Assembly: GCA_943350635.1 (NCBI GenBank)
Contig: CALRAI010000001.1
Location: 4,051 to 68,050 of the forward strand
Reading direction: 5' to 3'
Source of the DNA: Candidatus Uhrbacteria bacterium
GTDB taxonomy: Bacteria > Patescibacteriota > Patescibacteriia > UBA9934
DNA length: 64,000 nt
Of this stretch, positions 4,121-49,396 are shown in pieces (the stretch's first letter is position 1; each line of letters opens with the position of its first letter). Below the pieces are notes generated by a model that saw nothing but the letters and a program-made list of their open reading frames with translations, had not been told where the DNA came from and made no database searches. The translations under genes were made by a program, and so were the position numbers.

Positions 4121-4215
4121 TTGGTCGATTTTGGGCTTGCACCATCGAAAACTTTCTCAACGTACCAGGAGTACGTCTCAAAAGCTTTTCTCGATGCGCG
4201 CCCAAACTCGCCGCA
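4121..4215 (-). promoter_or_regulatory. conserved upstream element with ACGTAC…GTACGT hairpin (copy 1, upstream of ybaB)
   Basis: Shares TTTCGGTGCGC…TGAGACGTAC-N6-GTACGTTGA…GCAAGCC(G/C)AAAAT with the copies at 20086-20197 and 49300-49396. All three lie 60-100 nt upstream of minus-strand, highly expressed genes. Confidence 0.45.
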
Positions 4216-4261
4216 AATGTGAACGTTCAGTATTAGTAATGATTATTAATCATGGACGAGC

Positions 4262-4393
4262 GTTAGTGGCGAGGATGCATTGTTCCAACGAGCACGCGCC
4301 CCACAACTGCAGTCGAGCGTAGCGAGACGTTGCAGCGTAGGGGATTCGCGCGGAGTGCAGAACGATGTATCCAAGCCACCAGCGAGTACAGAT
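4262..4393. repeat. MITE-like repeat, copy B (partial, 3' half)
   Basis: About 130 nt, roughly 88% identical to 3064-3197 of copy A. Ends in the same …CCAAGCCACCAGCGAGT terminus. Confidence 0.55.
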
Positions 4394-4402
4394 AAAATAG
4401 TA

Positions 4403-5913
4403 TCAATATTGCTTCTTCGGCGGAAGGCCGACGCCTTTTGGAGGAATACCTGGTGGCAAGCCAACGTTATTCGGTTTTGGTTCCGTTGATCCATCGCTGG
4501 ACGACGATGCGCTGCTCGACGACATCATCGGCGCGCGTTGTCCTTCTAGGTTTTTAAACGACGCATGCGTTGCATCCCAGTACAGCGGCACCATGCCGGT
4601 TGGTCCGTTACGATGTTTAGCGATATGTACTTCCGCGCGGGTTTTTTCCTCCGGCGTGAGTTCTTCTGGTTGATAGTTTCTATCCGCAGCTTTGCGATAC
4701 AAGAACATGACGACGTCCGCATCCTGCTCAATACTTCCCGAGTCGCGAAGGTGAGCGAGCTTTGGAATAGCAGGCTTTGTCATTTCCACCGCACGAGAAA
4801 GCTGCGCCAACGCGAGCACAGGAACATTGAGCTCACGCGCAATCTGCTTTAACCCGCGAGAAATCTCCGCAACTTCCTGCACACGATTGTCCGTTTTCTT
4901 TCGCGCTTCCATAAGCTGCAAGTAGTCGATAACAATCATCGAAAGTCCGTGCTCGCTTTGGAGCCGACGAGCCTTGGTGCGAATACTCATGATGGTTGCA
5001 ATCGGCGAGTCGTCAATAAAGATCGGTGCTTCCGAAAGTTTGCCGAGCGCCTCGCCGATACGCGGAAAATCATCAGCGCTTTCGCTCAATCGACCAGTAC
5101 GCAGCTTCCACAAATCCACATTCGCTTCCGCGGAAATCATACGATCGACGAGCTGCTCCTTGCTCATTTCCAAACTGAAGAATCCCACCGGTTTTCCGGT
5201 TCGTAAGGCTACATTGCGAATAATGTCCATAGCAAACGACGTTTTTCCCACGGAAGGTCGCGCAGCCAAAATAATCAGATCGGAGTTCTGAAGCCCAGCA
5301 AGAAGATTATCGATTCCCACGAATCCCGTTGCAACACCACGAAGCTTTCCCTTTTCTTTGTGAAGCTCATCGATTCTGTCGAATGCTTCTGTGAGTAATG
5401 TATGCAACGGCGTGAACGATTGCTTAATGAAATTTTGTGACACGTTGAATAGCCGACGTTCTGCCTCGTCGAGTAACACGTCAACGTCTTGCGATTCGTC
5501 GAATCCAAGATCGGTAATGTCACTTGCGGCACGAAGTAACCGACGTAGCGCCGCTTTCTTTGCAATAATATCGGCGTGGTGAGCGACGTGTGCGGCGGTA
5601 GTCGTTACGTTCGTGAGTTCGACAAGCGCCGTTCGTCCACCAATTTGTTTGAGCACGCCTTTTTCCTCGAGTCTGTTTCCCAGCGTCAACACATCGATCG
5701 GCTCATGACGGTCGACGAGCTCGAGCATCACCTCGTACAAAATGCGATGGGAATCTTTATAGAAATCCTCCGATCGTAACGCGTCGCCAATCTTGAGTAG
5801 CACATCCTGATCCAACAAAAGCGAGCCCAGCAGCGAACGCTCGGCTTCAAGATTGTGAGGAGGAATGCGCCCAACGTCGGCCATAGATAGCGCTATGGTA
5901 ACCGACTCTGGCA
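4403..5913 (-). CDS. dnaB: replicative DNA helicase DnaB
   Basis: DnaB N-domain (NLEAERSLLGSLLLD), Walker A (ARPSVGKTSFAMD), Walker B (IVIDYLQLM) and an arginine finger region. Start chosen at MPESV (5913). Unusual ~50-aa Ser/Pro-rich C-terminal tail. Confidence 0.9.
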
Positions 5914-5998
5914 TGCGCAGAAAGTAAAAAACGGGGGTAACGTGTGAAGAAGATGTGTGCGAGTGGGGGATAAGCAAGAATGCTATAATGTTCGCACT

Positions 5999-7132
5999 AT
6001 GCAAAGCGATGGTTCTCGCGTGTGGTGTGCGGCAAGGCCGTTGATTGGCACCATGATCGGTGTGGGAATGTTGGGGTTACCGTTTGCGGTGGTTCGTGTG
6101 GGAGTATGGTTTGGTATGGTGGAACTCGTGCTTTCGGCGCTCGTTTGTTACTTGGTGCTGCGGTTATACGGCGATCTTATTGTGCTTCGTGGCGGAAAAG
6201 CGCGGTTTATCCAGGTGATCGATAAGGAACTTGGTCATTTTGGAACCGGCGTTGCATCCATTGCCTACATTGGCGCCACATTCGGCGCTTTGCTTGCATT
6301 TCTTCTTTTTGGCGGACAATTTTTGCGAACCGTAACGTTTGGAATTTTTCCAATGACGCCCACTGAATCGAGCATGGCGTTCTTTTTTCTGGCATCAATA
6401 CTCACCATTGGCGGATCGCTGTTCATTGCCCGAGTACAGCGCGTCCTTATCCCGATCTTTTTATTTTGTATCTGTTGTTTGGTGGTGGTGGCAGCTCCGA
6501 ACGCCACCGCAGCACACTTCGCTCTTCCGGCTTCGATGGATGGCCTTGGATTAACGTTTGGTGTGATGCTCTTTTCCTTTCATGGCATGTCTGCACTACC
6601 AGAGATGCGCGATATTCTTGGAAAGAAGGTTTCGTTGCTCTCCCGATCTATCGGGGTTGGTACGATGGTAGTTACTGCAGTGTATGCCGCATTCATTCTT
6701 GCAGTTATTGGTGTTACCGGCGCGCAAACCACGGAGAACGCTATTCGCGGCCTGAGCGTGCTCGGATCGTCCTTCGTTCTCTTTGCAAGCGGCATTGCGC
6801 TTCTGGTGACGTTCACGGTGTACACCAATGTCGCAAGCGCATTAACCAACACGTTTCTGTACGATTTGCGCATGCGGTTTGCTCACGCCTGGTTGCTTAC
6901 GGCGGGGATTCCACTCGTTGCATTTTTTGCTGGCGCACAAAAGATTTCCTCTGTTCTCTCAATTACCGGTGGTGTCCTTGGATCGCTCACGGGAATTATG
7001 ATGCTCATTGCGTACGAGCGTGCCCGAGTGAGCGCGGAACTTCCCAAAAACTCCCTCAATATTTCCCAGTGGGCAATTGCTCTCACATTCGTCATTTTCG
7101 TGAGCACGATGGTTTCGACGACACTGAGATGA
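5999..7132 (+). CDS. amino acid permease family transporter (about 11 TM)
   Basis: Polytopic membrane protein with an N-terminal LIGTMIGVGMLGLPFAV motif typical of amino-acid (aromatic/AAAP-like) permeases. Start taken at MQSDG. Confidence 0.6.
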   Translation: MQSDGSRVWCAARPLIGTMIGVGMLGLPFAVVRVGVWFGMVELVLSALVCYLVLRLYGDLIVLRGGKARFIQVIDKELGHFGTGVASIAYIGATFGALLAFLLFGGQFLRTVTFGIFPMTPTESSMAFFFLASILTIGGSLFIARVQRVLIPIFLFCICCLVVVAAPNATAAHFALPASMDGLGLTFGVMLFSFHGMSALPEMRDILGKKVSLLSRSIGVGTMVVTAVYAAFILAVIGVTGAQTTENAIRGLSVLGSSFVLFASGIALLVTFTVYTNVASALTNTFLYDLRMRFAHAWLLTAGIPLVAFFAGAQKISSVLSITGGVLGSLTGIMMLIAYERARVSAELPKNSLNISQWAIALTFVIFVSTMVSTTLR

Positions 7133-7312
7133 TGTACCTGGTATAACTGTCATCTCCGCGCAGAGCTTGTCCTCGACCTGATCGGGGACGGGGATCCAGA
7201 GCGCAACATCAGGGATGGATCCCCGCATACGCGGGGATGACGGAAGAGGACGTGATGGAAAAGAAGATTTCCAAAAACATCATATTTCGTTATTGTGTGT
7301 GCTGGAGGTTTT

Positions 7313-7682
7313 CATGGCTACTCGCCGTCAACAGATTCGCACCACTGCAGAAATGCTCATCGTCGATTTCTTGCGGCAGCACGTGCCGCTCAACCAACAA
7401 CGCTCCGAATGGCGTTTCACATTCGCAGACATCGACGTGGCGTTTCATCGCTATTACCACGCAAGGAAAGACGCTCACAACGCTGCATGCGCGGCATGCA
7501 AAAGCGAGCATCACTGCGTGCTCGTGGACGCGCTCCAGGCGCTGTGCCCAAATCCCGTGAGCGGAGTTTCCATGATCTTCCGTGCCCACATCCTCGCGAT
7601 TGGCGAGTTCGACACCTTCACCGACTCCGGTACGCTCTTCCCCCCGGCCTTCGGCCCCTTCCGTCCGCCAGACGACTCGTAG
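7313..7682 (+). CDS. hypothetical protein (GC-rich insert)
   Basis: Only protein-like frame in the GC-rich block. The opposite-strand ORF is Arg-rich antisense-looking. No domains recognised. Confidence 0.25.
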
Positions 7683-7880
7683 AGACTGCGCGCCAACCGT
7701 CACCTGCCACGTCTTCAACGGAAGCCGTCGCGCAAGTGACGGTTTTCTGTTTGTGTCTGATTTGAGGGAGTGATGGATTGAAAAAGCGAAACGCACCCGG
7801 AGGCGGCACGTTTGCCGCGCGGGTGCGCAAGTTATCACTCAATGAACTGGACGGTGGACTGGTCGACGCACGACTGTTGG

Positions 7881-8360
7881 CTACGGTCGCTTGCTGATGA
7901 CGATCTCATTGCCCGTGATCTCGACGATGCACGTCGCCGGCCGGCAGGTCGAGTTGTCGTCGATCTCGAACTGCGACTGCGAGTCGATGCTGTCCTGGAT
8001 ACGGCAGTCGAGCAGCTGAGCCTGCTCGATGAGTGCGACCATCTTGGGGTCGGCCTTCGGCAGGTTAAAGTCCATCACGTGATAGGTTTCCTGGTTGTCA
8101 AACATCGACCCACCACGGCCGTAGATAGTGTACTGGGTGGTGGAGTTTCTTTTCCGATCCCAGATCGTTTTGTCGCGACAGTCGTACGCCTCAAGGAAAC
8201 CCTGCTCGGCATTTCCACCGCCGACGATGTTGCACGGCTTGGCGGCGTAGCCACAGTCGAGCTCGGACACCAAGCCGATGTGGAAGAGCTCAAGGTCTTC
8301 GCCAGGGGCGATTTCGCCAGCGCAGGCGGAGAGAAGCAGGAACGGAAGGACGAAACGCAT
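7881..8360 (-). CDS. hypothetical lipoprotein
   Basis: Signal peptide with lipobox (MRFVLPFLLLSAC). Cys-containing secreted domain. GC-rich relative to backbone. Confidence 0.5.
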   Translation of the reverse strand: MRFVLPFLLLSACAGEIAPGEDLELFHIGLVSELDCGYAAKPCNIVGGGNAEQGFLEAYDCRDKTIWDRKRNSTTQYTIYGRGGSMFDNQETYHVMDFNLPKADPKMVALIEQAQLLDCRIQDSIDSQSQFEIDDNSTCRPATCIVEITGNEIVISKRP

Positions 8361-8608
8361 GGTGGACTCCAGTGCATTAGCACAGGGGGCGGAAATGCCC
8401 GTCTATTGGCACCACTGTATAGTGATGACTATGGACGGACATCGCTCTTTCAGTCTTCATCGTAACTAGTAATGATAGCGCAAAAATGGGCTTTTGTCAA
8501 CCAGAAATATGAAGAAAAGCCAATAAATACAGATATTTTACTGGAAATCGCCTGTGTACAAGTTTTGGGGAATTTTTGTAAAAGATTCGACGTTCCTGGC
8601 GGTGAGAT

Positions 8609-8932
8609 ATGTTAGAATTTAGCAAATACATTATGGAACTTCTCTTGTGGGATATTTACGAAATTCAATCTCAGTCCTCGCTTCACGGCGTGATGCTTCG
8701 AGGAAGACTGAGGAAATTTGCGAATCAACAAAGTATAAATCTCCTAACAGAAAATGAAGAAAACGGTGCGAGTGTACGCTTTGCAGTCCTTGCAGAATCT
8801 GATCCAGCTATCGTGACTACTTTTATCACGTCACTTGTTCCCGACGCTCACATCGAACGCGTTCGTGAGAAGGTATCGAATCCTGTTCTCTCTAAACTGC
8901 AAGTGAACGTCGATGACCGATATACGATTTAA
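8609..8932 (+). CDS. hypothetical protein
   Basis: Isolated AT-rich ORF just left of the island junction. No motifs recognised. Confidence 0.25.
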   Translation: MLEFSKYIMELLLWDIYEIQSQSSLHGVMLRGRLRKFANQQSINLLTENEENGASVRFAVLAESDPAIVTTFITSLVPDAHIERVREKVSNPVLSKLQVNVDDRYTI

Positions 8933-9012
8933 ATAGTAATATACAAAGCTTGGGCAACCAGTGGGCAACGAGAAAGAGAGAACAATAAAAATATCCAACA
9001 ACTGTTGGATAT

Positions 9013-9042
9013 TTTTGGTGCGCCGAGCGGGGATCGAACCCG
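9013..9042. repeat. distal att direct repeat (30 bp copy of tRNA-Lys 3' end)
   Basis: TTTTGGTGCGCCGAGCGGGGATCGAACCCG is identical to 19984-20013, which includes the 3' 27 nt of tRNA-Lys. Confidence 0.75.
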
Positions 9043-9400
9043 ATGATGGCAATTTACGAAAGATGAGCAATAACAGGCAAAAACGCAGGAAAAGCCATTG
9101 GCTGTTGCTGTTTCTCAATTCTCATAGTTACACATTGTTACTCGACAAAATACACAATCCATCACTTTATGGGCAACGGGTGGGCAACACCTCCGGGGAG
9201 TGATGGAATTTTGGCTCATCTGATTCGATGCTATCAATGACGATCAGATGCGATCTGGATTATGGAATCCGTTTGTTTATTTTAATTTCTCAATTCTCCT
9301 TATTTCAGTGGATGGAGCCTCTCCTCAAGAAAAGGGCAGCATGCATATCGGGTGATATACTTTGCAGAAGGATTGGCCCATTTAATTACTAAATACCCAT

Positions 9401-10105: not shown

Positions 10106-10251
10106 CATTTTTCACGAATCGGGCCAGAAAGGAGCGTCATGAGAGCAAACTACAGCATTGCAAGAATGTATTACTCACGAATCTTTACCTTTTCCTTTTA
10201 CACGAACCATAAATTGGGCTGCGTGTGAGAAGGATTTCGTGTTTAGCGGAA

Positions 10252-13758: not shown

Positions 13759-13767
13759 AAAATATTG

Positions 13768-15901: not shown

Positions 15902-16042
15902 CACAAAGCCCGCCGCTAGCCGACACCTTGCGGTGTCCATACCCCTTTCGAGATATGACCATACAAAGGAAGCTGAACGACGGGTTCAGTACTTTGTATG
16001 GGTTTACTGCCATACCTCACGGTTGATCCGAGAGGGTTAGGC
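15902..16042. ncRNA. conserved structured element, copy 1 (nested hairpin CCATACAAAG…CTGAACGACGGGTTCAG…CTTTGTATGG)
   Basis: About 140 nt, alignable to 40373-40516 with compensatory changes in the outer stem. Lies in a divergent intergenic region of the island. Strand and function unknown. Confidence 0.4.
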
Positions 16043-16098
16043 AAATTCAATTTTCGAACGTTGTTATTATGGAATTTTTCGGCTAACGTTGTCAAAGA

Positions 16099-19986: not shown

Positions 19987-20061
19987 TGGTGCGCCGAGCG
20001 GGGATCGAACCCGCGACCACGAGCTTAAAAGGCTCTTGCTCTACCACTGAGCTACCAGCGC
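19987..20061 (-). tRNA. tRNA-Lys (anticodon TTT)
   Basis: Folded by hand as a cloverleaf: acceptor GCGCTGG/TCGGCGC, anticodon loop CTTTTAA, T-arm GGTTCGATCC, encoded CCA. Confidence 0.85.
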
Positions 20062-20085
20062 ATGGGAGAGCTTCCTCGTTTTGTC

Positions 20086-20197
20086 TATTTTCGGCTTGCC
20101 ACGTCGTTCGCGAACGACGTGGCTTGCTGCGTCGCACATTCGTTCAACGTACTAAGAAGTACGTCTCACGAATTGTGCTCCTGGCGCACCGAAACTA
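20086..20197 (-). promoter_or_regulatory. conserved upstream element (copy upstream of tRNA-Lys) with an extra 24-bp perfect palindrome
   Basis: Same GTTTCGGTGCGC…GAGACGTAC-N6-GTACGTTGA…GCAAGCCGAAAAT as the ybaB and HU copies. CCACGTCGTTCGCGAACGACGTGG is inserted at 20098-20121. Confidence 0.45.
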
Positions 20198-20278
20198 GCC
20201 TAAAACGCGAAAGCTCTCATATAAATCTCGAACAAATAACGTGCGCAGGATATCAGATTCGGGGGAATCTGTGAAGGT

Positions 20279-40372: not shown

Positions 40373-40516
40373 CACAAAGCCCGCCGCCAGCATTGTGACT
40401 TTCATCACCGCACCCCTTTCGGAGTACGACCAACCAAGGCTTTGCTGAACGACGGGTTCAGTGCCTTGGTTGGGTTTAGCACCATGCCATGGTCGATGTC
40501 CGATCATGGTTTAGGC
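40373..40516. ncRNA. conserved structured element, copy 2
   Basis: Aligns with 15902-16042. Inner hairpin CTGAACGACGGGTTCAG is identical. Outer stem CCAACCAAGGC/GCCTTGGTTGG covaries with CCATACAAAG/CTTTGTATGG in copy 1. Confidence 0.4.
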
Positions 40517-40606
40517 GACTCTAAGTTGTACGCACATAGTAGCTTATTGCAGAAAACTACTCAAATTGAGTTGCCTACAGTTTGCTTTAGGGATTTTTGA
40601 GGAGAT

Positions 40607-41424: not shown

Positions 41425-41455
41425 AAAAACAGGGCTAAGAAAAGCCCTGTTTTTG
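41425..41455 (+). terminator. rho-independent terminator
   Basis: AAAAACAGGGCT-AAGAAA-AGCCCTGTTTTT. Confidence 0.5.
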
Positions 41456-41460
41456 TATGG

Positions 41461-42825
41461 TTGGGTGTAGCAGGGCGACTATCGGGTGTAGCGGCGTGGG
41501 TGATGCAATATCCCCATAACTCTTCACCAACACCTATGCCAAAAGACATAGAACAAACAGCAAAGATCGCCGTTCAATACGTCCCGATAGATTCACTCAA
41601 AAACACAAAATACAACCCGAGAAAACATGATGCGGCCGCAGCGGAAAAGCTGAAAGACAGCATCCGTCGTTACGGTCTCGTCGACCCTATCCTTGTAAAC
41701 AGCGCGCCGAAACGCAAAGGCGTCATCATCAACAAACATTTTCGTTGGAAGGTCGCCAAGGAACTTGGTATTGAGCAAGTACCCGTCGTGTTCCTCAACA
41801 TTCCAAATCCTGAACGCGAGAAGGAACTTAACCTTCGCCTCAATCGGAACACTGGCGAATGGGACTGGAATTTGCTGAAGGACTTTGATCTCGACCTCCT
41901 TCTTGATGTCGGGTTCGATGACGTCGATCTGAGCCATGTGTGGGATGACTCACTCGAAACCGAGGACGATGACTTCAATATCAAAAAAAAACTGGCCAAG
42001 ATTAAGAAGCCAACGACAAAACCTGGCGACATATTTCAGCTCGGCGTGCATCGGCTTATTTACAGCGACTCCACGGATGCAAATGTCGTGAAGAAGCTTG
42101 TAGGGAAAGTTGGTATCGACATGATTTATTCTGACCCTCCGTACAACATCGCCCTCGACTACTCCAAGGGCGTGAGTACTTCCGGTAAGTACGGCGGAAA
42201 AACGAACGATAAAAAAACCACCGTCGATTACCGCGCATTCCTCAGGTCGGCAATGGAGAATGGCCTCGCCGTTGCCAAGTCGGACGCACACGTCTTCTTT
42301 TGGTGCGACGAAAACTACATTGGCGTCGTGCAAAGTCTTTACCAAGAGGTTGGTGTCGCGAACAAGCGCGTGTGTTTGTGGGTGAAGAATAACTTCAACA
42401 TGACGCCGCAAGTGGCTTTCAACAAAGCCTATGAGCCCTGTGTCTACGGCACACGCGGTAAACCGTACCTTGCGCCGAAGATTCAGAACTTGAACGAGCT
42501 GATGAATAAAGAGATCGGCAACGGCAATCGCGTAGCCGATGACATCTTGGATCTTATGAGTATTTGGTTGGCGAAGCGACTGCCCGCGCAAGAATACGAA
42601 CATCCGACGGAAAAGCCGCCCACCCTGCACGAGAAAGCTCTCCGACGCTGCACGAAACCGGGCGACGCAGTTCTCGACCTGTTCGGCGGCTCGGGTTCGA
42701 CGCTCATCGCTTGCGAGCAGTTAAAACGACGCGCGTTCCTGGTTGAGATTGAACCAATATTCTGTGACTTAATCATTCGTCGATATGAAGCCCTCACCAA
42801 AACAAAAGCCAAGCGCATCAATTAA
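41461..42825 (+). CDS. ParB-like nuclease domain fused to DNA N4/N6 methyltransferase
   Basis: N-terminal ParB-N (VQYVPIDSLKNTKYNPRKHD…GLVDPILVN). MTase motifs IYSDPPYNI and EHPTEKP with a C-terminal SAM-binding region. Start may be MPKDIEQ (41536). Confidence 0.7.
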   Translation: MGVAGRLSGVAAWVMQYPHNSSPTPMPKDIEQTAKIAVQYVPIDSLKNTKYNPRKHDAAAAEKLKDSIRRYGLVDPILVNSAPKRKGVIINKHFRWKVAKELGIEQVPVVFLNIPNPEREKELNLRLNRNTGEWDWNLLKDFDLDLLLDVGFDDVDLSHVWDDSLETEDDDFNIKKKLAKIKKPTTKPGDIFQLGVHRLIYSDSTDANVVKKLVGKVGIDMIYSDPPYNIALDYSKGVSTSGKYGGKTNDKKTTVDYRAFLRSAMENGLAVAKSDAHVFFWCDENYIGVVQSLYQEVGVANKRVCLWVKNNFNMTPQVAFNKAYEPCVYGTRGKPYLAPKIQNLNELMNKEIGNGNRVADDILDLMSIWLAKRLPAQEYEHPTEKPPTLHEKALRRCTKPGDAVLDLFGGSGSTLIACEQLKRRAFLVEIEPIFCDLIIRRYEALTKTKAKRIN

Positions 42826-43393: not shown

Positions 43394-43418
43394 GGGTCGC
43401 CAAACAATCAGCCCAAAC

Positions 43419-43452
43419 GAAAACCCGCACTCAATGAAGAATGCGGGTTTTC
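43419..43452. terminator. bidirectional terminator hairpin
   Basis: AAAACCCGCA-N12-TGCGGGTTTT lies between the MTase and tRNA-Gln. Confidence 0.55.
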
Positions 43453-43493
43453 TTGGTCACCCCCTGTCCCGGTCTGTAGGAACAGGTCGTGAT

Positions 43494-43566
43494 GGTTCCG
43501 GGACATGGATTCGAACCATGGTTCACGGCTTCAAAGGCCGCTGTCCTGCCGTTAGACGATCCCGGA
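43494..43566 (-). tRNA. tRNA-Gln (anticodon TTG)
   Basis: Hand-folded: acceptor TCCGGGA/TCCCGGA, anticodon stem GCGGC/GCCGT with loop CTTTGAA, T-arm CATGG-TTCGAAT-CCATG, CCA encoded. Confidence 0.8.
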
Positions 43567-43645
43567 GCGGTTACGACGCATTGCTGATCGAGGAGAAGTG
43601 TAGCGCAAAGGACGAAGGGAATCAATAACGGTATACTCTCTGTGC

Positions 43646-44440
43646 ATGAGTAAAGTGTCTGTGATTCAAGGGGATCAGCGACGAAAGGCGGTGTACGAAT
43701 CGCTGTATGGTTTGGGTATGGAGTTTGTGGACCGAATCAAAGCGACGAAATCCATACTTGTGGTGCCGAATATTTCATCGGCGGATAGTGCTTTTGCCAT
43801 ACACGCCGACGCACTTCGGGGAACAATCGATGCCATTCGTGTGCATTCTCGGGCTCCTATCAGTATCGGTGCTGCGGGAATGTATGGAACGAAAGCGGTG
43901 TTTCAACGCTTGGGATACGATCGACTGCTCCGTGAATACGATCATCTCCGATGTGTTGATTTTTACGACGACTCGCTCATCGAAAGTTTTATCGACGACG
44001 GAGCAATGATGATTCGTCGTCCAGCAACGGCGATGTCGAGAAGTTTCGTGATCTCTATAGCGCCGATTATTCCAAGTCGCACAGAATACATTTCTTTTTG
44101 CATCGAAAACTGGATCCGTAACTCATGGATCGTGCCGCCACGCTCGAGTGCCACGGGAATGGTGTGGAATCATGAGCCGTGGCTGGAAGGAAAGCGGGAT
44201 CGAGTTATCGGAGAGTTGTACCATCAGAAGCCATGCGACCTCGCGATTATCGACGGGATCGAGACACGAAGCATTGTTCTTGCGGGATTCGATCCTGTGG
44301 CGGTGGATACGGTTGGCGCTTCGCTTACTGGAATTGATGTTGCATCGGATTCTTACCTTTCTCTGCTTTCCGAACGGGGACACGGAGAATGCGCGTTATC
44401 CAAGATTGATGTTCCCTTGGGGATTGTTTCGCCTCGATAA
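43646..44440 (+). CDS. hypothetical protein (possibly DUF362-like)
   Basis: 264-aa ORF. The family assignment is tentative. Confidence 0.4.
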   Translation: MSKVSVIQGDQRRKAVYESLYGLGMEFVDRIKATKSILVVPNISSADSAFAIHADALRGTIDAIRVHSRAPISIGAAGMYGTKAVFQRLGYDRLLREYDHLRCVDFYDDSLIESFIDDGAMMIRRPATAMSRSFVISIAPIIPSRTEYISFCIENWIRNSWIVPPRSSATGMVWNHEPWLEGKRDRVIGELYHQKPCDLAIIDGIETRSIVLAGFDPVAVDTVGASLTGIDVASDSYLSLLSERGHGECALSKIDVPLGIVSPR

Positions 44441-44470
44441 TCGGGAATCATTCGTGTATCATTTCCCCAT

Positions 44471-44959
44471 ATGCCTACCTGTATTTTTCCTGGTCGATTT
44501 CAGCCGTTTCACGAAGGTCATATGCTCGTGGTGCAGGGGATGATGAAAATTCACGGAAATGCCGTTATTGCCATTTGCGATGGAAAGTCGGAGCACGGAG
44601 CAGATACTCCGTTTACGGTGGCACAGCGTCATGAAATGATCAGTGCCGCGCTTTTGGCCGCAGATATTACCGAAGCAACGATTGTGGACGTGATCGACAA
44701 GCCGTCGGACGAGCAATGGGTGGACGCAGTTATCGATGCTGCAGGGAGTCCTCGTGAGCCTTTAGTGTGGAGTGGTCGTGAGGAGATTCGCGCAATGTTT
44801 GAGGAAAAAAAGATTGAAACAAAAAAGATTGTTCCGGTTCCCGGTATCGACGGTGCCGCAATCCGATCAGCGATCGTCGCCGGAAAAGTAGATGAATGGC
44901 GAAAGAAAATTCCTGCGGGGGCATTAGATGTGGTGATGGAGATTACCCGCCTTTCTTAA
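44471..44959 (+). CDS. nicotinamide-nucleotide adenylyltransferase (archaeal NadM-type cytidylyltransferase)
   Basis: CIFPGRFQPFHEGH (HxGH nucleotidyltransferase motif). 162 aa. Confidence 0.7.
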   Translation: MPTCIFPGRFQPFHEGHMLVVQGMMKIHGNAVIAICDGKSEHGADTPFTVAQRHEMISAALLAADITEATIVDVIDKPSDEQWVDAVIDAAGSPREPLVWSGREEIRAMFEEKKIETKKIVPVPGIDGAAIRSAIVAGKVDEWRKKIPAGALDVVMEITRLS

Positions 44960-45743
44960 ATCCATCAATCGCCTTCAGCACTTCCAATGGCACCGCAAAT
45001 ACTACAGTGTTCGACGCATCGGACGAGATGTCATTGATCGAATTCAGCGTGCGAAGATGCAAGGCTCCTGGCGCTGCAGAGAGCGTAGCTGCGGCGCGTG
45101 CAAGATTTTCTGCGGCAGCGACTTCACCTTCAGAGTTAATGATCACGGCACGTCGTTCGCGTTCTGCTTCCGCCTGTTTCGCGATAGTACGCACCATGTC
45201 TGGCGGCAAGTTAATGTCTTTCAATTCTACTGCGGTTACTTCCACGCCCCATCCGCCAGTTGCTGCTTCTACAAGTTGCTCAATGCGGCTTGAGATTTGC
45301 TGACGCTGGGAGAGGAGTTCATCCAAAGTAACTTCACCAACTACATTACGCATGGTCGTTTGCGCAAGTTGGAGTACAGCCCAGTGCACGTGTTCAACTT
45401 CTATAACGGACTTTTGCGCATCAATAATTTTGTAATAAATCACGGCGGTAATTTTTGCGGAAACGTTGTCCTTGGTAATTGCATCCTGTGGGGGAACCTC
45501 AACCGCTTTCAAGCGAAGATCCACTTTGGTCATGGATTGGAACACCGGAAGAACCAAGCGCCATCCTGGATTGATCATGCTGGTGTAGCGGCCCATGGTG
45601 AATTTTACGCCACGTTCAAACTGGTTGATCTGACGGAGGGAAACAAGACACACCACCGCAACCACGAGAAGAAGAAAATAAAACATACAGAGGAATAAAG
45701 AATCGATGCATATATCATTACGCCGAAAGGCCTCTATCCGCAA
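44943..45743 (-). CDS. SPFH/band-7 (stomatin-like) membrane protein
   Basis: N-terminal TM, then an SPFH core (…KDNVSAKITAVIYYKIID…) and a coiled-coil Ala/Glu-rich tail. Confidence 0.75.
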   Translation of the reverse strand: MRIEAFRRNDICIDSLFLCMFYFLLLVVAVVCLVSLRQINQFERGVKFTMGRYTSMINPGWRLVLPVFQSMTKVDLRLKAVEVPPQDAITKDNVSAKITAVIYYKIIDAQKSVIEVEHVHWAVLQLAQTTMRNVVGEVTLDELLSQRQQISSRIEQLVEAATGGWGVEVTAVELKDINLPPDMVRTIAKQAEAERERRAVIINSEGEVAAAENLARAAATLSAAPGALHLRTLNSINDISSDASNTVVFAVPLEVLKAIDGFKKGG

Positions 45744-46659
45744 GATGTGACTGGTGGTGTTCTAGGAAAAGCAGCACCTGGAGCATTTCCTTGTGTGGAT
45801 CATTTTTCTGTACGACGGCACGATAAATGGCTTGAAGAAACGGAAATTCTGGCAAGGAAAGATTGGGAATGTTTACAACACACGGCAGTGTATTCATTAC
45901 CTCGCTTCCTCGATGTGGGGGAAGGCCTTGGGCCAAAAGATTTCCCGTCATGTAATTCGTCGAGTTTGTACTTTGTGCCGTTGCGACCAAATCCCCAAGT
46001 CCCGCAGGTCCTAATGCGGTTTCTCGTCGTCCACCTTGCTGTTCAACAATCATCATCATTTCTTCAACGGCTTGAGAAACAAGGGATCCATGAATATTGC
46101 TTCCCATGTGTAATCCGTCGCACATTCCTAAACCAAGCGCGTAGATATTTTTGAGCGCCGCCGAAAGCACCGTTCCAGCAATATCGTCCGTTTAACGAAC
46201 CACAAGCGGTGTATGCCGAAACAGCATGGCAACCGTATTGCGTGCCGTTGTATTCAAGCTCGCAGCAACGCCGGTGGCCGGAAGCCCGTTGAGCAATTCC
46301 TCGGAGATCATTGGTCCGCCAAGAAACACAAAGGGATTGTGTTGAGGAAGGTGCTGAGGAAAGAGTGTGTCCACACGTTGGCACGTTTCCTTCTCAAATC
46401 CCTTGGACACACTGACGATGATCGTTTTCTCCTGAAGGTACGGATGGATTTCTTGCAGAACCGATCGTGTCGTCCACGTAGGAACACATGCAATAAGCAC
46501 ATCGCAGGAGGGAAGAATCGATTGCAGTGGTGATTGATGGGGGAGAATGTCGCTATTCTTATCCCAACACGTTACCGTAAGATTCGGCTGTGGTTTGAGG
46601 ACATGGTGCAATGCCTTGCCCATTTCTCCGTATCCAAGAATAACAACATGTGTGACCAT
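45718..46659 (-). pseudogene. gpsA: glycerol-3-phosphate dehydrogenase [NAD(P)+] interrupted by a single in-frame TAA
   Basis: N-terminal NAD-binding part (VVILGYGEMGKAL) in ORF 46192-46659 and C-terminal part (AGTVLSAALKNIYALGLG…) in ORF 45718-46170 are in the same frame, separated only by TAA at 46189-46191. Confidence 0.6.
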
Positions 46660-46781
46660 AGATACAGTAAGTATACTCGAGCGCCGTACGATAATGAAAA
46701 AAAAGTGAAGGAATCCGTTGAGTGTAGGCATCGACTGATTTATACTGTTGCGGTATCGCAATATTCTTTATTGGACACTCT

Positions 46782-48026
46782 ATGCAAAAGGATTTGCTCA
46801 AGCAACACTATCCTGCGTTCGTTATCGGTTTTGTCGGTGCGTTATTGTGTCAGATTGTCATTATCGGCATCGCGGCAGGATTGTATGTTGGTACGCCGCT
46901 CAAACAGGTAGTTCGTGAAAAACTTCAATCGATCGTAGAAAAAGCAGTAACCGATAAAAATCTTACAGATTCTGCTGGGCAACATTCGGATGTTATCGAC
47001 GTGGTGGACGCGGTGAACCCCGCTGTTGTTTCTATAGTGATCAGCAAAGACGTGCCAAAAATGGAACAGATTTTTAACCAAGGAAATCCATCAAGTCCAT
47101 TTGGAATGTTTGGATTAAATTTCCCGCAGTACCAACAAAATGGTACGGAAGAAAAAGAAATTGGCGGCGGAAGTGGATTTATTGTGTCTGAAGACGGATA
47201 CATCGTCACGAACGCTCACGTGGTAAGCGATAAAGACGCGAAATACACCGTACTTTTAAACGACGAAACCAAACACGACGCCACGGTGGTTGCTGCAGAT
47301 GCCACGCTCGACATTGCTGTACTCAAAATTGATTCCACGGGATTGCCGTTCCTTGAGTTTGGTGATTCGGACACGGTGAAAGTCGGTCAATCTGTGGTGG
47401 CTATTGGAAATGCGTTAGGGCAATTCCGCAACACGGTTTCGGTAGGAGTTATTTCCGGACTTGCGCGATCAATTACCGCCGGAGACAATAATGGATCGGA
47501 ATTCTTGTCCGACGTGTTGCAAACAGACGCCGCAATTAATCCTGGAAATTCCGGTGGTCCGTTACTCGATTTATCAGGGAAGGTGATTGGTGTGAACGTA
47601 GCCACGAGCAGTGGAGGGGAAAATATTTCCTTCTCGTTGCCAAGTAATTTGGTTCGCGCCACCGTAGAGTCCATTGAAAAAAATGGGAAAGTCGTTACCG
47701 CATACCTTGGTGTGCGATATGTGATGATCGATGCGGAATATGCAAAGGCGAACACCATCGCTGTTGATCATGGCGCTCTAGTGCAGCGTGGCGATGACGG
47801 AAAGACAGTTGCGGTGATTCCAGGATCCCCGGCAGACAAAGCGGGTATTGAGGAGAACGATATTATCATCACTGTCGACGACGTAACACTCGACGAAAAT
47901 CACCCGTTGCACGTGGTACTTCGTCAAAAAACCGTTGGCGATGTGATTACCATGAAGGTATTACACGACGGCGTTGAAAAAACGGTTACTGCAACGCTTG
48001 CCGAACGACCAGCAGAAACGGAATAA
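46782..48026 (+). CDS. htrA: HtrA/DegP-family serine protease with PDZ domain
   Basis: N-terminal TM. Catalytic triad context (TNAHVV…D…GNSGGPLLD). C-terminal PDZ domain. Confidence 0.85.
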   Translation: MQKDLLKQHYPAFVIGFVGALLCQIVIIGIAAGLYVGTPLKQVVREKLQSIVEKAVTDKNLTDSAGQHSDVIDVVDAVNPAVVSIVISKDVPKMEQIFNQGNPSSPFGMFGLNFPQYQQNGTEEKEIGGGSGFIVSEDGYIVTNAHVVSDKDAKYTVLLNDETKHDATVVAADATLDIAVLKIDSTGLPFLEFGDSDTVKVGQSVVAIGNALGQFRNTVSVGVISGLARSITAGDNNGSEFLSDVLQTDAAINPGNSGGPLLDLSGKVIGVNVATSSGGENISFSLPSNLVRATVESIEKNGKVVTAYLGVRYVMIDAEYAKANTIAVDHGALVQRGDDGKTVAVIPGSPADKAGIEENDIIITVDDVTLDENHPLHVVLRQKTVGDVITMKVLHDGVEKTVTATLAERPAETE

Positions 48027-48040
48027 GTAGTGTACGATGG

Positions 48041-48934
48041 GTGCATATGAAACACCCCATCTCCATTGCACTGTTCAGCTTGGCGGGCATTCTTGGCATA
48101 ATGTTGATATGTTTATTCATTTTTCGACCCTGGAATGGTGCGGTGATTCCAAAAGATTGGACAACAAATGGCGACGAGAACGTTCCCCCTATCGTTCCAG
48201 GCAACGGAGGCGATGCGGTAGTGGTACCTACGGAGATAGTGTCAACGTCTGGAAATATTGCAGTATCGAGCCCTGCCGCGAACGCAACAATTGGCTTACC
48301 ATTGGTATTTGTTGGAAAAGCTCGAGTATTTGAAAGTGTCTTCAATTATCGACTGCTCGACACAAACGGGGACGAGCTTGTTACCGGACATGCCATGAGC
48401 AATGCGCCAGATATGGGGGAGTTTGGATACTTCACCGTGACAACGAGCTACAACAAGCCAAACGGAACCACAGGAACGCTCGAAGTATTCGCATATAGCG
48501 CAAAAGATGGTTCTGTCATTGATTTGGTTTCTGTGCCGGTAGTCTTTCCTGTGGTTGAGTCGATGGTGGTGAAGACGTATTGGCTGGAAAGCGGTGAAAC
48601 GGATTGCGACACCGTTGTTGCAACAAAACGACGTGTGCCAAAAACAGTCGCCACTGCTCATGCGGCACTTACGGAATTACTTTCTGGCCCAGGTGGCACA
48701 GAATCCGCGCAGAATCTCACTACATCCATTCCTTCCGGCGTCACCATTACATCACTGTCCATTACGGACGGTGTTGCAACAGTAGTCTTCTCGAGCGGCC
48801 TTGAAACCGGCGGTTCGTGTCGTGTGACATCGATTCGTGCGCAGATCGAAGCGACATTGAAGCAATTTTCAACCGTCACGTCGGTGGTGATCTCGACGGC
48901 TGGAAAAACACCAGAGGAATCATTGCAGCCGTAA
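48041..48934 (+). CDS. secreted protein with Ig-like (Gmad2) and GerMN-like domains
   Basis: Signal anchor, Ig-like beta-rich region, and a GerMN-type C-terminal region. Domain calls are tentative. Confidence 0.4.
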   Translation: MHMKHPISIALFSLAGILGIMLICLFIFRPWNGAVIPKDWTTNGDENVPPIVPGNGGDAVVVPTEIVSTSGNIAVSSPAANATIGLPLVFVGKARVFESVFNYRLLDTNGDELVTGHAMSNAPDMGEFGYFTVTTSYNKPNGTTGTLEVFAYSAKDGSVIDLVSVPVVFPVVESMVVKTYWLESGETDCDTVVATKRRVPKTVATAHAALTELLSGPGGTESAQNLTTSIPSGVTITSLSITDGVATVVFSSGLETGGSCRVTSIRAQIEATLKQFSTVTSVVISTAGKTPEESLQP

Positions 48935-48948
48935 TAATAAATCACAAA

Positions 48949-48982
48949 CAAAAAAACTCCCCGATTGCTCGGGGAGTTTTTT
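48949..48982. terminator. bidirectional rho-independent terminator
   Basis: AAAAAA-CTCCCCGATTGCTCGGGGAG-TTTTTT lies between convergent genes. Confidence 0.6.
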
Positions 48983-48993
48983 GAATGAACTGT

Positions 48994-49284
48994 TTAGAGA
49001 AGAGCTTCCTTTGCAGCCTTGCTCACGCCGAACTTGAGAACGGTGCGTGCAGGGATCTTGATGGTTGCACCCGTTGCTGGGTTGCGACCCATACGTGCGG
49101 CACGCTGCTTCTTGACCATCTTTCCAAGGCCTGGGAATGCAACTTCACCAGCGCGCTTGATTTCTCCGTAGATGAGTGCAACGAAGCTGTCGTACATTTC
49201 ACCAGCTTGCTTCTTGCTTACTCCCCAACGTTCTGAAAGTTCTGCCATGATCTGAGACTTGGTCAAACGCTTTGCTGCTGCCAT
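48994..49284 (-). CDS. hup: DNA-binding protein HU
   Basis: MAAAKRLTKSQIMAELSERWGVSKKQAGE…GKMVKKQRAARMGRNPATGATIKIPA matches the HU/IHF family. 96 aa. Confidence 0.9.
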   Translation of the reverse strand: MAAAKRLTKSQIMAELSERWGVSKKQAGEMYDSFVALIYGEIKRAGEVAFPGLGKMVKKQRAARMGRNPATGATIKIPARTVLKFGVSKAAKEALL

Positions 49285-49299
49285 AGAATGTTGGGCTTC

Positions 49300-49396
49300 C
49301 TTATTTCGCCCATTTTCGGCTTGCACCGTCGAAAATTTTTTCAACGTACAACGAAGTACGTCTCAAACATTTTCTTGATGCGCACCGAAACTGGTC
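49300..49396 (-). promoter_or_regulatory. conserved upstream element (copy upstream of HU)
   Basis: Same motif set and hairpin (TGAGACGTAC-TTCGTT-GTACGTTGA) as the ybaB and tRNA-Lys copies. GCAAGCCGAAAAT lies about 34 nt before the ATG. Confidence 0.45.

Follow-up and report, generated by a model that had tools for sequence, protein, structure and literature searches.

The three related minus-strand elements that precede ybaB, tRNA-Lys, and HU in the window (the whole 64,000-nt stretch of Candidatus Uhrbacteria DNA analyzed here) are copies of a dispersed repeat, an imperfect palindrome of ~125 nt that is predicted to fold into a long, rod-like hairpin of ~55 bp. Given that it is multicopy in many phyla and that no family in Rfam 15 matches it, we regard it as a dispersed structured repeat rather than as a lineage-specific promoter; the restriction to one lineage proposed in the initial annotation does not hold, with homologous hairpins in so many phyla. 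As to its role, the explanation that we favor, at about even confidence, is that the repeat works at the RNA level, as a hairpin in leaders or trailers that changes how transcripts are processed or how stable they are. The positions of the copies and of the associated features are listed in Table 1.

Table 1. Repeat copies and associated features in the window
Feature	Position	Strand	Remark
recR	3204-3803	-	Follows ybaB
ybaB (YbaB/EbfC family)	3807-4100	-	Gene 3' of copy 1
Hairpin repeat copy 1	4103-4230	-	~125 nt; ends 3 nt before ybaB ATG (4100-4098)
Apical helix, copy 1	4157-4179	-	GAGACGUAC-loop-GUACGUUGA: tandem G.A, then G.U, then 6 Watson-Crick pairs
tRNA-Lys(UUU)	19987-20061	-	Gene 3' of copy 2
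Hairpin repeat copy 2	20062-20218	-	157 nt including nested 28-nt insertion; ends 4 nt (CCAT) before tRNA-Lys
Nested perfect 24-nt palindrome CCACGTCGTTCGCGAACGACGTGG	20099-20122	.	Inside copy 2, between duplicated GCAAGCC
Apical helix, copy 2	20144-20167	-	Hairpin-core motif match
Sigma-70-like promoter of tRNA-Lys unit	20247-20275	-	TTCACA-17-TATCCT, TG upstream
HU (Bac_DNA_binding)	48994-49284	-	Gene 3' of copy 3
Hairpin repeat copy 3	49287-49414	-	~125 nt; ends 7 nt before HU start codon
Apical helix, copy 3	49341-49364	-	Hairpin-core motif match
Candidate HU extended -10 (TGCTAAGCT)	49442-49450	-	~28 nt upstream of hairpin base, outside repeat

A covariance model (CM R1) trained on copies in relatives was run over the 64-kb window. 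It scored copies 1, 2, and 3 at 121.8, 127.1, and 122.3 bits (E about 1e-26) and detected no fourth copy, the best other match reaching 15.9 bits, which confirms the three minus-strand copies noted at the outset. On the canonical strand the copies thus score 122 to 127 bits, versus 29 to 47 bits for their reverse complements (39.5 bits for copy 1). As first described, all three contain the hairpin core TGAGACGTAC-N5/6-GTACGTTGA; its N6 form has two matches in the window versus 0.01 expected, GCAAGCC(G/C)AAAAT has three versus 0.30 expected, and AGTTTSGGYGCGC matches at the three copies and at one chance site in a coding region (41702). The unit had been put at ~100 nt and placed 60 to 100 nt upstream of the genes, but it is longer (about 125 to 129 nt, more in copy 2), and its copies stop 3 to 8 nt short of the gene (start codon or 5' end of the tRNA). 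A fixed spacing of ~34 nt had been given for two cases; the equality stands, the ATG of both HU and ybaB following 27 nt after ...AAAAT. The palindrome inside copy 2 is indeed perfect, one base away from where it had been placed. It is a recurrent nested insertion: CCACGTCGTTCGCGAACGACGTGG occurs once in the window, the L193 ortholog of copy 2 lacks it, and L109 carries a different nested hairpin at the identical GCAAG^CC site. Two further readings were rejected, namely, AAGGAAGCCC as an SD-like sequence, since it is the 3' half of the outer stem and pairs with GGGTTTCTT, and GTTTGGGCGCGC/GCCCAAAAT in the ybaB copy as a mismatch, since it is a compensatory change.

The individual copies fold stably. 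The inner 95 nt of copy 1 have a minimum free energy of -45.8 kcal/mol (z -7.0), and the stem GUUUGGG/CCCAAAA covaries with the other copies; copy 2 folds into a three-way junction (-57.7 kcal/mol, z -6.5) and copy 3 reaches -37.4 kcal/mol (z -4.8). Across the family, tandem G.A motifs recur three times in the hairpin and the apical helix, GA-R-N-Y-GUAC/GUAC-R-N'-Y-GA, is nearly invariant, with the G.A motifs and the apical helix GAGNCGUAC/GUACGN'UGA conserved. In 21 type A copies from relatives, 95.4% of the cells are paired, versus 78% in shuffles and ~40% in slid controls, and changes on both sides compensate at 30 of 45 pairs. G.U/U.G outnumber A.C/C.A by about 3:1 in 63 copies (129 versus 39). 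The internal loops are conserved, the apical loop ranges from 3 to 8 nt, and the outer arms contain phased A/T tracts; the apex is conserved across phyla, while the stems drift. When copies lie inverted at the 3' ends of genes, their canonical strand still folds better by 5 to 23 kcal/mol, indicating that the strand asymmetry belongs to the element and is not an adaptation to the neighboring transcript.

The apex was found atop ~125-nt hairpins in Patescibacteria, Nitrospira, Desulfobacterota, Treponema, Sporomusa, and others, with more than 117 matches spread over many phyla and a hairpin length of 120 to 130 nt in 50 of 120. Treponema vincentii OMZ 806, Sporomusa silvacetica DSM 10669, and Uliginosibacterium sp. 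H1 are among the carriers. A second search, which used the flanking motifs only and left the apex unconstrained, retrieved 53 metagenome loci whose apexes match the same consensus and covary. Contigs of CPR bacteria are dense in copies (L125 has six within 11 kb), and viral contigs, phages, and plasmids contain almost none. In compact genomes the repeat occupies, in both orientations, 5' leaders, spacers between cistrons, and 3' trailers. In agreement with the initial annotation, it directly precedes highly expressed genes, not only in the window but also in relatives, where tRNAs, tmRNA, 5S rRNA, and the ribosomal proteins L27, L28, and L35 follow it, as do HU and YbaB genes. It also precedes glycosyltransferase, PGI-like, Mur ligase, ndk, ccmF, and malic enzyme genes, and no protein family is enriched beside the copies, the majority of which adjoin protein genes or have no tRNA-like neighbor. 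Copies unrelated to gene starts, named at the outset as what would refute the proposed module, do occur, in the form of the inverted copies at 3' ends. The tRNA contexts are upstream and in sense in 22 of 59, and in 26 of 27 cases it is the end of the 3' arm that is turned toward the tRNA, whichever way the tRNA is transcribed, with gaps of 0 to 7 nt on the tRNA 5' side and 1 to 2 nt on the 3' side; in L125, one hairpin ends 1 nt before tmRNA. This polarity, being independent of transcription direction, points to a DNA-level cause, e.g., the insertion mechanism.

The repeat is preceded by promoter-like boxes. The tRNA-Lys promoter, outside the repeat and ~25 nt ahead of the hairpin base, is common to L191, which lacks the hairpin, and L193, which bears it. 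TGCTAAGCT is a candidate extended -10 box of HU, and it is kept as TGCTAAGAT or TGTTACGCT in hairpin-free HU orthologs. TTGACA-N17-TATCCT/TATCAT/TAAACT precedes the repeat in L156, L158, L056, and L133, -10-like boxes are often found 1 to 10 nt before the hairpin base, and genes begin 0 to 8 nt past it in the window and in relatives (the ybaB-recR region is matched by identical loci, L187 to L190, with PF02575 and RecR domains). Given this arrangement, the repeat should be transcribed as a leader. Of the strong-promoter/leader module first proposed, the leader is therefore retained, as it is almost certainly transcribed, but the promoter is not, its boxes lying outside and upstream.

Genomes can do without the element, and close relatives differ in having gained or lost it. 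L174 and L175 both encode an HU protein identical to that of the window, yet at the HU locus L174 has no hairpin and L175 has just its basal stem; L175 also has an insertion in reverse orientation after the HU stop codon, ahead of the terminator. HU orthologs at 68 to 87% identity likewise lack the hairpin. The tRNA-Lys copy is absent from a relative at 90% identity but kept in one at 70% (L193), where it is 90% identical to the window copy and differs by two compensatory double changes, while the adjoining 28-nt leader is ~50% identical and the neighboring ATPase 70% (protein). The repeat is thus not a fixed feature of these genes. The ATPase/Mur junction is also polymorphic, near-identical paralogues (L053a and L105b) coexist in one MAG, and center-deleted remnants occur.

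Such polymorphism would also be expected of a selfish mobile DNA palindrome, in which the apical hairpin would be the single-stranded DNA site of a putative transposase or recombinase, the RNA hairpin a functionless by-product, and insertions would survive only in the few nonessential bases of compact intergenic regions. We consider this possible but rather doubtful. The reverse insertion 3' of HU in L175, the near-identical paralogues, the nested insertions and remnants, the tRNA-end polarity, the strand asymmetry of copies antisense to their neighbors, and the lack of an enriched protein family all agree with it. However, no cognate transposase was found near the copies: Y1 transposase genes are nearby in L098/L144, L171, and L012, and neither the L098 gene, which has its own 23-bp TIRs, nor the L171 gene, which has its own REPs, is cognate. 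The termini vary and the center is conserved, the opposite of MITEs, and target-site duplication is not consistent, with one possible TA..TA junction. Contig L144 carries both orientations in a span of 300 nt, which argues against lagging-strand-specific single-strand transposition. The near absence from viral contigs, phages, and plasmids and the compensatory conservation of the tRNA-Lys copy beside a decayed flank also speak against a purely selfish element.

It is unlikely that the product is itself an abundant ~125-nt, multilocus hairpin RNA whose apex binds or sequesters a conserved protein and whose 3' end is released when RNase P cleaves the neighboring tRNA, tmRNA, or mirror-image tRNA. 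The close abutment of the 3' arm to tRNAs in either orientation and to tmRNA in L125, the asymmetry kept everywhere, the -10-like boxes near the hairpin base, and the conserved apex on drifting stems would fit, but most copies have no such neighbor, RNase P cleavage of mirror tRNAs is an assumption, and transcription of the canonical strand of inverted copies is a supposition, with spacers of only 23 to 40 nt. A cis-regulatory leader, an operator RNA through which a protein or ligand would coordinate translation-apparatus and nucleoid genes, appears less probable still: the enrichment of stable RNAs and ribosomal proteins downstream, the conserved internal loops, the strongly conserved tRNA-Lys copy, and the tRNA association of the middle-loop variant AGGAG (9 of 17 copies versus 3 of 26 for YCGAG) are set against the unrelated genes also preceded, the inverted copies at 3' ends, the absence from HU orthologs and very close strains, a rod-like helix with no obvious ligand pocket, and type A copies without alternative-structure or terminator logic. 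A DNA-level module (a lineage-specific strong promoter, UP element, operator, cruciform, or nucleoid-protein site) is largely refuted and very improbable, despite the fixed position directly upstream of highly expressed genes, the phased A/T tracts, and the DNA-binding nature of HU and YbaB, since the promoter hexamers lie outside the repeat and persist in orthologs without it, the window copies contain no -35/-10 pair suitably spaced from the 5' end of the tRNA, the variable loop length is incompatible with a dimeric operator, G.U and G.A conservation is strand specific, and the family spans phyla.

In population terms, and by analogy, the repeat behaves like REP/ERIC/Correia-type repeats. 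As in REP/BIME/REPIN elements (RAYT; Proteobacteria), it forms dispersed, multicopy intergenic palindromes with one-strand hairpins that are long-lived yet variable between strains and, in our case probably, cotranscribed with flanking genes, and REPINs are likewise hairpins of about 100 nt. REPs, however, are 20 to 40 nt long with a terminal GTAG or CGTC tag (PMC3733652). This tag is missing here; furthermore, REPINs conserve two stem-forming REPs, whereas our repeat conserves the tip, REP families are lineage specific, whereas this apex spans phyla, no flanked RAYT turned up (the Y1 genes close by carry TIRs or REPs of their own), and 5' leaders of stable-RNA genes are favored over 3' ends. 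ERIC/IRU (Enterobacteria) and Correia/NEMIS (Neisseria) are similar as imperfect palindromes of ~105 to 157 bp in transcribed intergenic regions, often near gene starts. They are insertion polymorphic and are cotranscribed as long RNA hairpins that affect mRNA stability, the Correia hairpin being cut by RNase III; Correia is not known to have a cognate transposase. Unlike our repeat, they are genus or family restricted, have conserved termini (26-bp TIRs and a TA duplication in Correia) rather than a conserved center, and lack the marked polarity toward tRNA, tmRNA, and 5S genes. TD-1/TD-2 of Treponema (Rfam clan CL00124) are also multicopy, ~100-nt structured intergenic motifs often 5' of genes, but they differ in sequence and structure, are confined to Treponema, and their models gave no score for the hairpin even at E ≤ 1. 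Separately, L080 and L116 have TD-2 copies next to the hairpin. The lower helix of group II intron domain V, GAGCCGUAU...GUACGGUUC, is resembled by apex variants GAGCCGUAC...GUACGGUGA, including its conserved G.U. We treat this as a lead only: the 2-nt bulge, upper helix, GNRA loop, and other intron domains are missing, the closing pairs are G.A/A.G instead of G-C/A-U, and the Rfam Intron_gpII model does not match the hairpin at E ≤ 10. Leader hairpins processed by RNase III (phage lambda N leader, T7 R1.1, and rRNA processing stalks) are single copy and form no sequence family; like our repeat, they are long imperfect duplexes with internal loops adjoining the 5' ends of functional RNAs, and they are a model for how it could work.

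Under the leader/trailer explanation, the repeat would sit in a short leader, with an independent sigma-70-type promoter on one side and the gene on the other, and, lying within a transcribed leader, would be made as RNA and fold into its rod-like hairpin. The hairpin may then alter the processing or stability of RNAs from heavily transcribed genes, either by blocking 5'-end-dependent decay or by giving RNase III or another double-strand-specific nuclease a place to enter. Since RNase III needs no conserved sequence, it does not explain the invariant apex, which is probably recognized by a putative conserved factor, with the apical helix and the G.A loops as its binding site. That very close relatives (L174 and L191) have lost the repeat shows any benefit to be small or conditional. 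Purifying selection nevertheless acts on one strand of the copies that persist, from which we infer that the repeat is more than junk.

Read on the minus strand and aligned, the three sites share the blocks AGTTT(C/G)GG(T/C)GCGC, TGAGACGTAC-loop-GTACGTTGA, and GCAAGCC(G/C)AAAAT, just as the initial annotation had described, and pattern searches showed that these blocks are far more frequent in the window than expected by chance; one extra match, at 41702, sits within a plus-strand ORF and was discarded as fortuitous. The perfect 24-nt palindrome reported for the tRNA-Lys copy is present as well, at 20099-20122 rather than 20098-20121. The similarity among the copies extends outward beyond the limits first assigned to them. 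The "SD-like" segments AAGGAAGCCC, GAGGAAGCTCTC, and GCGGACGTTC pair with the upstream segments GGGTTTCTT, GAGAGCTTTCGC, and GAACGTTCAC, respectively, showing that each unit is an imperfect palindrome of ∼125 nt (157 nt including the nested insertion). A covariance model run over the whole window with filters off retrieves these three copies and no others, scoring them at 122 to 127 bits on the given strand versus 29 to 47 bits on the reverse complement.

Nested small secondary palindromes are also found in hairpin copies on three of the related contigs from public genomes and metagenomes (designated L plus a three-digit number here). Those of the window and of L109 occupy the same GCAAG^CC site and show a short CAAG(CC) duplication, which suggests either slippage at the GCAAG^CC loop or another insertion-prone hairpin, smaller still. 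Gene callers have evidently been misled by the palindrome on the start of ybaB: the 132-amino-acid ORF reads through the hairpin, and the same call is found on one public contig (L190), while others give 87 or 112 amino acids. If the family is what it seems, annotators would have reason to treat "SD-like" motifs and long ORFs in such leaders, this ybaB ORF included, as palindrome artifacts.

Each window copy folds into a single long hairpin (z-scores of −4.8 to −7.0), with compensatory differences between copies, e.g., GUUUGGG/CCCAAAA versus GUUUCGG/CCGAAAA. When 18 copies taken from public genomes were added to those of the window in an alignment, RNAalifold yielded 45 pairs, 30 of which show changes on both sides; paired cells amounted to 95.4%, versus 78% in shuffles and 32 to 44% with the partner slid, and the covariation score was 0.49 versus 0.16. 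The apex of the helix has conserved G.U and tandem G.A/A.G pairs, below which lie a second tandem G.A mid-helix and further G.A pairs lower down. As in structured RNA motifs generally, a conserved structure is thus maintained by compensatory changes on one strand. The excess of G.U/U.G over A.C/C.A (129 versus 39 in 63 copies), together with the far higher model score on the given strand, indicates that one strand is constrained as a single-stranded hairpin, whether RNA or single-strand DNA.

The initial annotation regarded the element as specific to its lineage, a notion contradicted by the occurrence of apex-topped hairpins in many phyla. A scan of one genome per species gave at least 117 loci matching the apex GAGACGTAC-N3-8-GTACGTTGA. 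By our own arithmetic, about 100 matches to an 18-nt pattern with six spacings are expected by chance in 596 Gb, so that the count itself proves nothing and the hairpin context is the evidence. Of the 117 listed loci, ∼10 to 15 look like chance matches in coding sequence. Most matches lie right at the tip of a long hairpin with covarying arms, and 50 of 120 predicted hairpins are 120 to 130 nt long. Carriers include Patescibacteria (Uhrbacteria, Paceibacterota, and Saccharibacteria), many Nitrospira, Desulfobacterota, Omnitrophota, Acidobacteriota, Methylomirabilota, Syntrophomonas, Sporomusa silvacetica, Treponema vincentii, and Uliginosibacterium, and they include the cultured strains T. vincentii OMZ 806, S. 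silvacetica DSM 10669, and Uliginosibacterium sp. H1. Three subtypes have the apex and overall size in common and differ in their lower motifs. Type A, to which the window copies belong, is found in CPR, whose contigs are copy-dense (six copies in 11 kb in L125). A search with type-A flank motifs only, leaving the apex unconstrained, recovered 53 metagenome loci; their apexes fit GA-R-N-Y-GUAC / GUAC-R-N'-Y-GA and covary (GAGGUGUAC/GUACAUUGA, GAGCCGUAC/GUACGGUGA, and, in one case, GCGACC/GGUCGG).

Several loci hold additional conserved sequence beside the hairpin. A type-A subfamily (L121, L122, L123, L134, L160, and L171) has a conserved 3' extension (AGCCAAGARGCCRGCGG...) after ...GCAAGCCGAAAAT, which forms an additional hairpin and makes some members larger, multidomain elements. 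Three MAGs (L011, L016, and L069) share a conserved CTCAAGGCTGCGGACAAGAAGATACATACACGGCAACC just 3' of the hairpin; this sequence represents either an RNA not yet annotated or the beginning of a small basic protein (MPKIKNLP...) with its ATG inside the hairpin 3' arm. Treponema intergenic regions with TD-2 motifs clustered within ∼100 to 200 nt of the hairpin are hot spots for more than one repeat family, and a group I intron was detected alongside hairpin copies on a Patescibacteria contig.

Coordinates of hairpin copies and of features found with them in the window and on related contigs
Feature	Sequence	Position	Strand	Details
Hairpin copy before ybaB	Window	4103-4230	Minus	
Hairpin copy before tRNA-Lys	Window	20062-20218	Minus	
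Hairpin copy before HU gene	Window	49287-49414	Minus	
ybaB ORF, 132 amino acids	Window	3807-4205	Minus	Starts at TTG 4205
Putative tRNA-Lys promoter	Window	20275-20247		TTCACA-17-TATCCT
HU extended −10	Window	49442-49450		TGCTAAGCT
HU upstream region	Window	49285-49460		Compared with L176-L186
LOOT RNA	Window	15922-16043	Minus	RF03000, 91.5 bits (gathering score 46.4)
LOOT RNA	Window	40395-40517	Minus	RF03000, 77.7 bits (gathering score 46.4)
Nested palindrome in hairpin copy	L109	1278-1442		
Nested palindrome in hairpin copy	L175	1778-1959		
Nested palindrome in hairpin copy	L125	1445-1627		
smpB to rplT region	L125	5630-8343		Hairpin remnant at 7719-7790
Convergent copies with insert	L098	6598-7961		Same as L144:1206-2569
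tRNA-hairpin-hairpin-tRNA	L008	3785-4215		
tRNA-hairpin-hairpin-tRNA	L109	1617-2040		
tRNA-hairpin-hairpin-tRNA	L161	9421-9851		
TD-2 motifs with hairpin	L080	1052-1394	Both (TD-2)	RF03162
TD-2 motifs with hairpin	L116	7293-7607	Both (TD-2)	RF03162
Group I intron	L090	747-972	Minus	RF00028, 59.8 bits

The repeat is placed with a polarity relative to gene ends. A copy lies within 130 nt in 27 of 59 tRNA contexts (22 upstream in sense, 4 downstream in antisense, 1 upstream in antisense, and none downstream in sense orientation), meaning that the 3'-arm end faces the tRNA in 26 of the 27. The tRNA begins 0 to 7 nt past the hairpin base in 12 of 56 distinct type-A copies, and the apex-to-tRNA distance is 53 to 57 nt in seven loci from different phyla and 82 to 87 nt in two copies with a nested insertion. 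A tmRNA starts 1 nt after the hairpin in L125, and 5S rRNA lies downstream of a copy in the 23S-5S spacer of L086; ribosomal proteins L35, L28, and L27, HU, YbaB, and various enzymes are also encoded downstream of copies. Inverted copies adjoin the 3' ends of tRNAs (L008, L109, and L161), rpsI (L131), a pilin gene (L112), and the HU gene (L175) and likewise follow tmRNA (L125) and 16S rRNA (L014). They keep the canonical strand asymmetry, with their own strand folding 5 to 23 kcal/mol better. Both orientations occur at most 300 nt apart on one contig (L144), which counts against a replication-strand rule.

Two arrangements combine both orientations. One recurs at three loci and consists of a tRNA, 1 to 2 nt, an inverted hairpin, a spacer of 23 to 40 nt, and a sense hairpin located 2 to 4 nt before another tRNA; the paired hairpins belong to different subtypes and are mutually noncomplementary. 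The other brackets a stable RNA, the tmRNA of L125, with inverted copies, in the order smpB, sense hairpin, tmRNA, inverted hairpin ∼100 nt further on, infC, a remnant, rpmI, and rplT.

As for the strong-promoter/leader module originally proposed, the leader part finds support and the promoter part does not. Promoter-like boxes of the σ70 type are located outside the repeat, on its upstream side, in the window as well as in L156 and L158 (TTGACA-N17-TATCCT), L056 (TTGACA-N17-TATCAT), and L133 (TTGACT-N17-TAAACT), and orthologous loci lacking the repeat have such boxes too, the HU extended −10 being conserved there. Within the repeat, no promoter was called in the minus-strand copies, and no workable −35/−10 pair fits. 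Given that the boxes lie upstream, with the repeat between them and the highly expressed genes, the repeat is not the promoter and is probably located in the transcribed leader. HU genes of related Patescibacteria (L176-L186) share the extended −10 (TGCTAAGAT / TGTTACGCT) with the window and have, like it, short AU-rich leaders that lack a Shine-Dalgarno sequence, which suggests SD-independent initiation of this abundant protein.

The element is not fixed at these genes, as orthologous HU and tRNA-Lys loci of close relatives lack it. Among contigs with an identical HU, L173 has the arrangement of the window, L174 is identical over the upstream ∼200 nt, yet lacks the element, and L175 retains only a basal 15-bp stem with a CTGG cap and has a full reverse-orientation copy past the HU stop codon, ahead of the terminator. 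No copy was found at HU orthologs of 68 to 87% identity. Judged by its HU homologues, the window belongs to Patescibacteria. We compared the tRNA-Lys locus using the divergent P-type ATPase gene as an anchor. In a relative of 90% identity (L191), the promoter and tRNA-Lys lie 66 nt from the ATPase gene and the hairpin is absent; in one of 70% identity (L193/L194), the hairpin lies 4 nt upstream of tRNA-Lys. This last copy is 90% identical to that of the window, lacks the nested palindrome, and differs by two compensatory double changes, and the adjoining 28-nt leader is only ∼50% identical. In L192, a copy separates the ATPase gene from the Mur-ligase gene, a junction of 6 nt in the window. 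Taken together, these locus comparisons indicate that gain and loss of the element occur over short times, although it is strongly conserved where kept; if the family is what it seems, it would provide strain-level insertion markers.

Known RNA classes do not account for the hairpin. At the gathering score, the Rfam 15 matches in the whole window were limited to two LOOT RNAs and four tRNAs, none over the hairpins, and no match overlapped the hairpins in 48 related loci from several phyla; at an E value of ≤10, the hairpin copies gave only weak, generic miRNA-precursor-like matches, and at an E value of ≤1, no overlap was seen in 5 related loci. Searches of the searchable literature with apex and flank sequence strings and keywords gave nothing relevant. 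The LOOT RNAs lie within a Patescibacteria-like window; we know of reports of this family from human oral metagenomes only. No intrinsic terminator, with its G+C-rich stem and U-tract on the transcribed strand, was called for the minus-strand copies, and the type-A 3' arm is purine/A-rich; A-run/U-run outer stems are present in Nitrospira-type relatives, and terminator-likeness may vary with subtype. A kink-turn, in which a 3-nt bulge precedes tandem G.A pairs, does not fit, the tandem G.A lying within a continuous helix without a bulge in the window copies and relatives. A possible resemblance to domain V of group II introns, a 34-nt hairpin that combines an AGC triad with a 2-nt bulge and a GNRA loop, was rejected: there is no RF00029 match at an E value of ≤10, and the loop directly follows a 9-bp helix. 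Integron attC sites have basal R''/L''...L'/R' boxes (RYYYAAC...GTTRRRY) and a variable center; here, boxes are missing from the hairpin base and the center is the conserved portion. On inspection, the sequence features of a T-loop, box C/D, and hammerhead or hairpin ribozymes did not fit either.

Among mobile repeats, MITEs share with the element its multicopy, noncoding nature and its presence/absence polymorphism at orthologous sites. Unlike MITEs, which have conserved terminal inverted repeats bound by a transposase and a target-site duplication of fixed length, the repeat has variable termini and a conserved center: the outer 10 to 12 bp vary between copies, in contrast to a conserved inner part and apex. 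A single ambiguous TA..TA junction was seen, and comparison of empty with filled sites at HU and tRNA-Lys shows no clean target-site duplication. The 150 ORFs within 700 nt of copies included no autonomous insertion sequence with matching ends, and none of their 212 Pfam families occurred in more than 3 ORFs. A phage or plasmid origin was dismissed, with 2 matches in viral contigs and none in phage or plasmid collections. REPs are 20- to 40-nt palindromes tagged terminally with GTAG or CGTC, and the RAYT gene is flanked by the same repeats (PMC3733652); this tag is missing from both ends of the hairpin repeat. A REP-associated tyrosine transposase is encoded 75 nt from a copy in L098/L144, with homologues near copies in L171 and L012. 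The RAYT-like L098 gene (80.6 bits to NF047646) proved to be a TIRYT bearing 23-bp TIRs of its own (GGGGTCAGGTCTTGCATTGTGCA), and the Y1 gene of L171 is a RAYT with its own REPs (CAAGCCCCGACCTTG); since these ends and REPs are unrelated to the hairpin repeat, we rejected them as partners. No dispersed repeats are known for Y1 proteins of subclass 2.1 (PMC6006769). The adjacency of transposase and hairpin is suggestive at most.

In L098/L144, two convergent copies surround ∼170 nt that begin with CTGGAGG and end with CCTCCAG; this insert has no Rfam match, looks like an unannotated small RNA, and lies directly beside the TIRYT, which has a C-terminal HTH. The REP/BIME/REPIN, ERIC, and Correia families are, like the hairpin repeat, multicopy, intergenic, hairpin-forming, and strain-variable; they are also cotranscribed, as the hairpin repeat probably is, and some of them lack a known transposase. 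Given this behavior and the failure of the defining tests for MITEs and REP-RAYT, we class the hairpin repeat among the dispersed palindromic repeats, outside any named family.

If the element is transcribed along with the gene, as its position suggests, a very stable imperfect duplex, predicted at ∼55 bp and thus above the RNase III length requirement (at least ∼20 bp), would be placed at or near the RNA 5' end, stopping a few bases short of the start codon or mature 5' end. Judging by ERIC, Correia, and phage leader hairpins, it would most likely shield the RNA against 5'-end-dependent decay or, alternatively, let a double-strand-specific nuclease part the leader from the gene. That the tRNA-Lys copy is 90% conserved, internal loops included, and that the apex is invariant across phyla imply sequence-specific recognition by a putative conserved factor, serving either the host (processing) or the element (propagation). 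A bolder and less likely reading is that the ∼125-nt hairpins, with their near-invariant GUAC apex bracketed by G.A/G.U, are an unrecognized cross-phylum class that would form a REP-RAYT-like host-element system with a different partner, whose elements may target, or mature at, the ends of tRNA, tmRNA, 5S rRNA, and ribosomal protein genes, the hairpin possibly being an abundant small RNA released by RNase P or an RNA-processing "punctuation" signal (e.g., in Patescibacteria and Nitrospira).

A purely selfish single-strand DNA element would agree with the one-strand constraint and the frequent gain and loss, but with copies so well conserved where kept, we find it rather doubtful. A stand-alone small RNA freed by RNase P would suit the copies abutting tRNAs; with protein genes also downstream of copies, it is unlikely. 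A regulatory operator would fit a leader position but is quite improbable. An rRNA-helix mimic bound by a ribosomal protein was rejected, the apex motif being absent from the examined 16S and 23S sequences. A translational switch by SD sequestration was rejected as well: HU orthologs lacking the element have SD-less AU-rich leaders, and GGAAG (11 to 16 nt from the ATG) is probably not a functional SD. The promoter model, whose boxes lie outside the repeat, is very improbable.

The finding exceeds the module first described, pointing to a large structured-repeat family of many phyla, unannotated in Rfam 15, with a conserved apex and gene-end polarity. If the family is real, one structured element would occupy leaders of tRNA, tmRNA, 5S rRNA, ribosomal protein, and nucleoid protein genes across Patescibacteria, Nitrospira, Desulfobacterota, Spirochaetes, Negativicutes, and others, absent from Rfam and the searchable literature. 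It would be a widely spread addition to the few bacterial dispersed palindromes (REP, ERIC, Correia-type, and RPE), and its conserved hairpin tip, unlike those, would imply a recognition partner. The cultured carriers make the family directly testable. To our knowledge, almost nothing has been established experimentally about how CPR bacteria process their RNA and express their genes, and the element would offer a handle on both.
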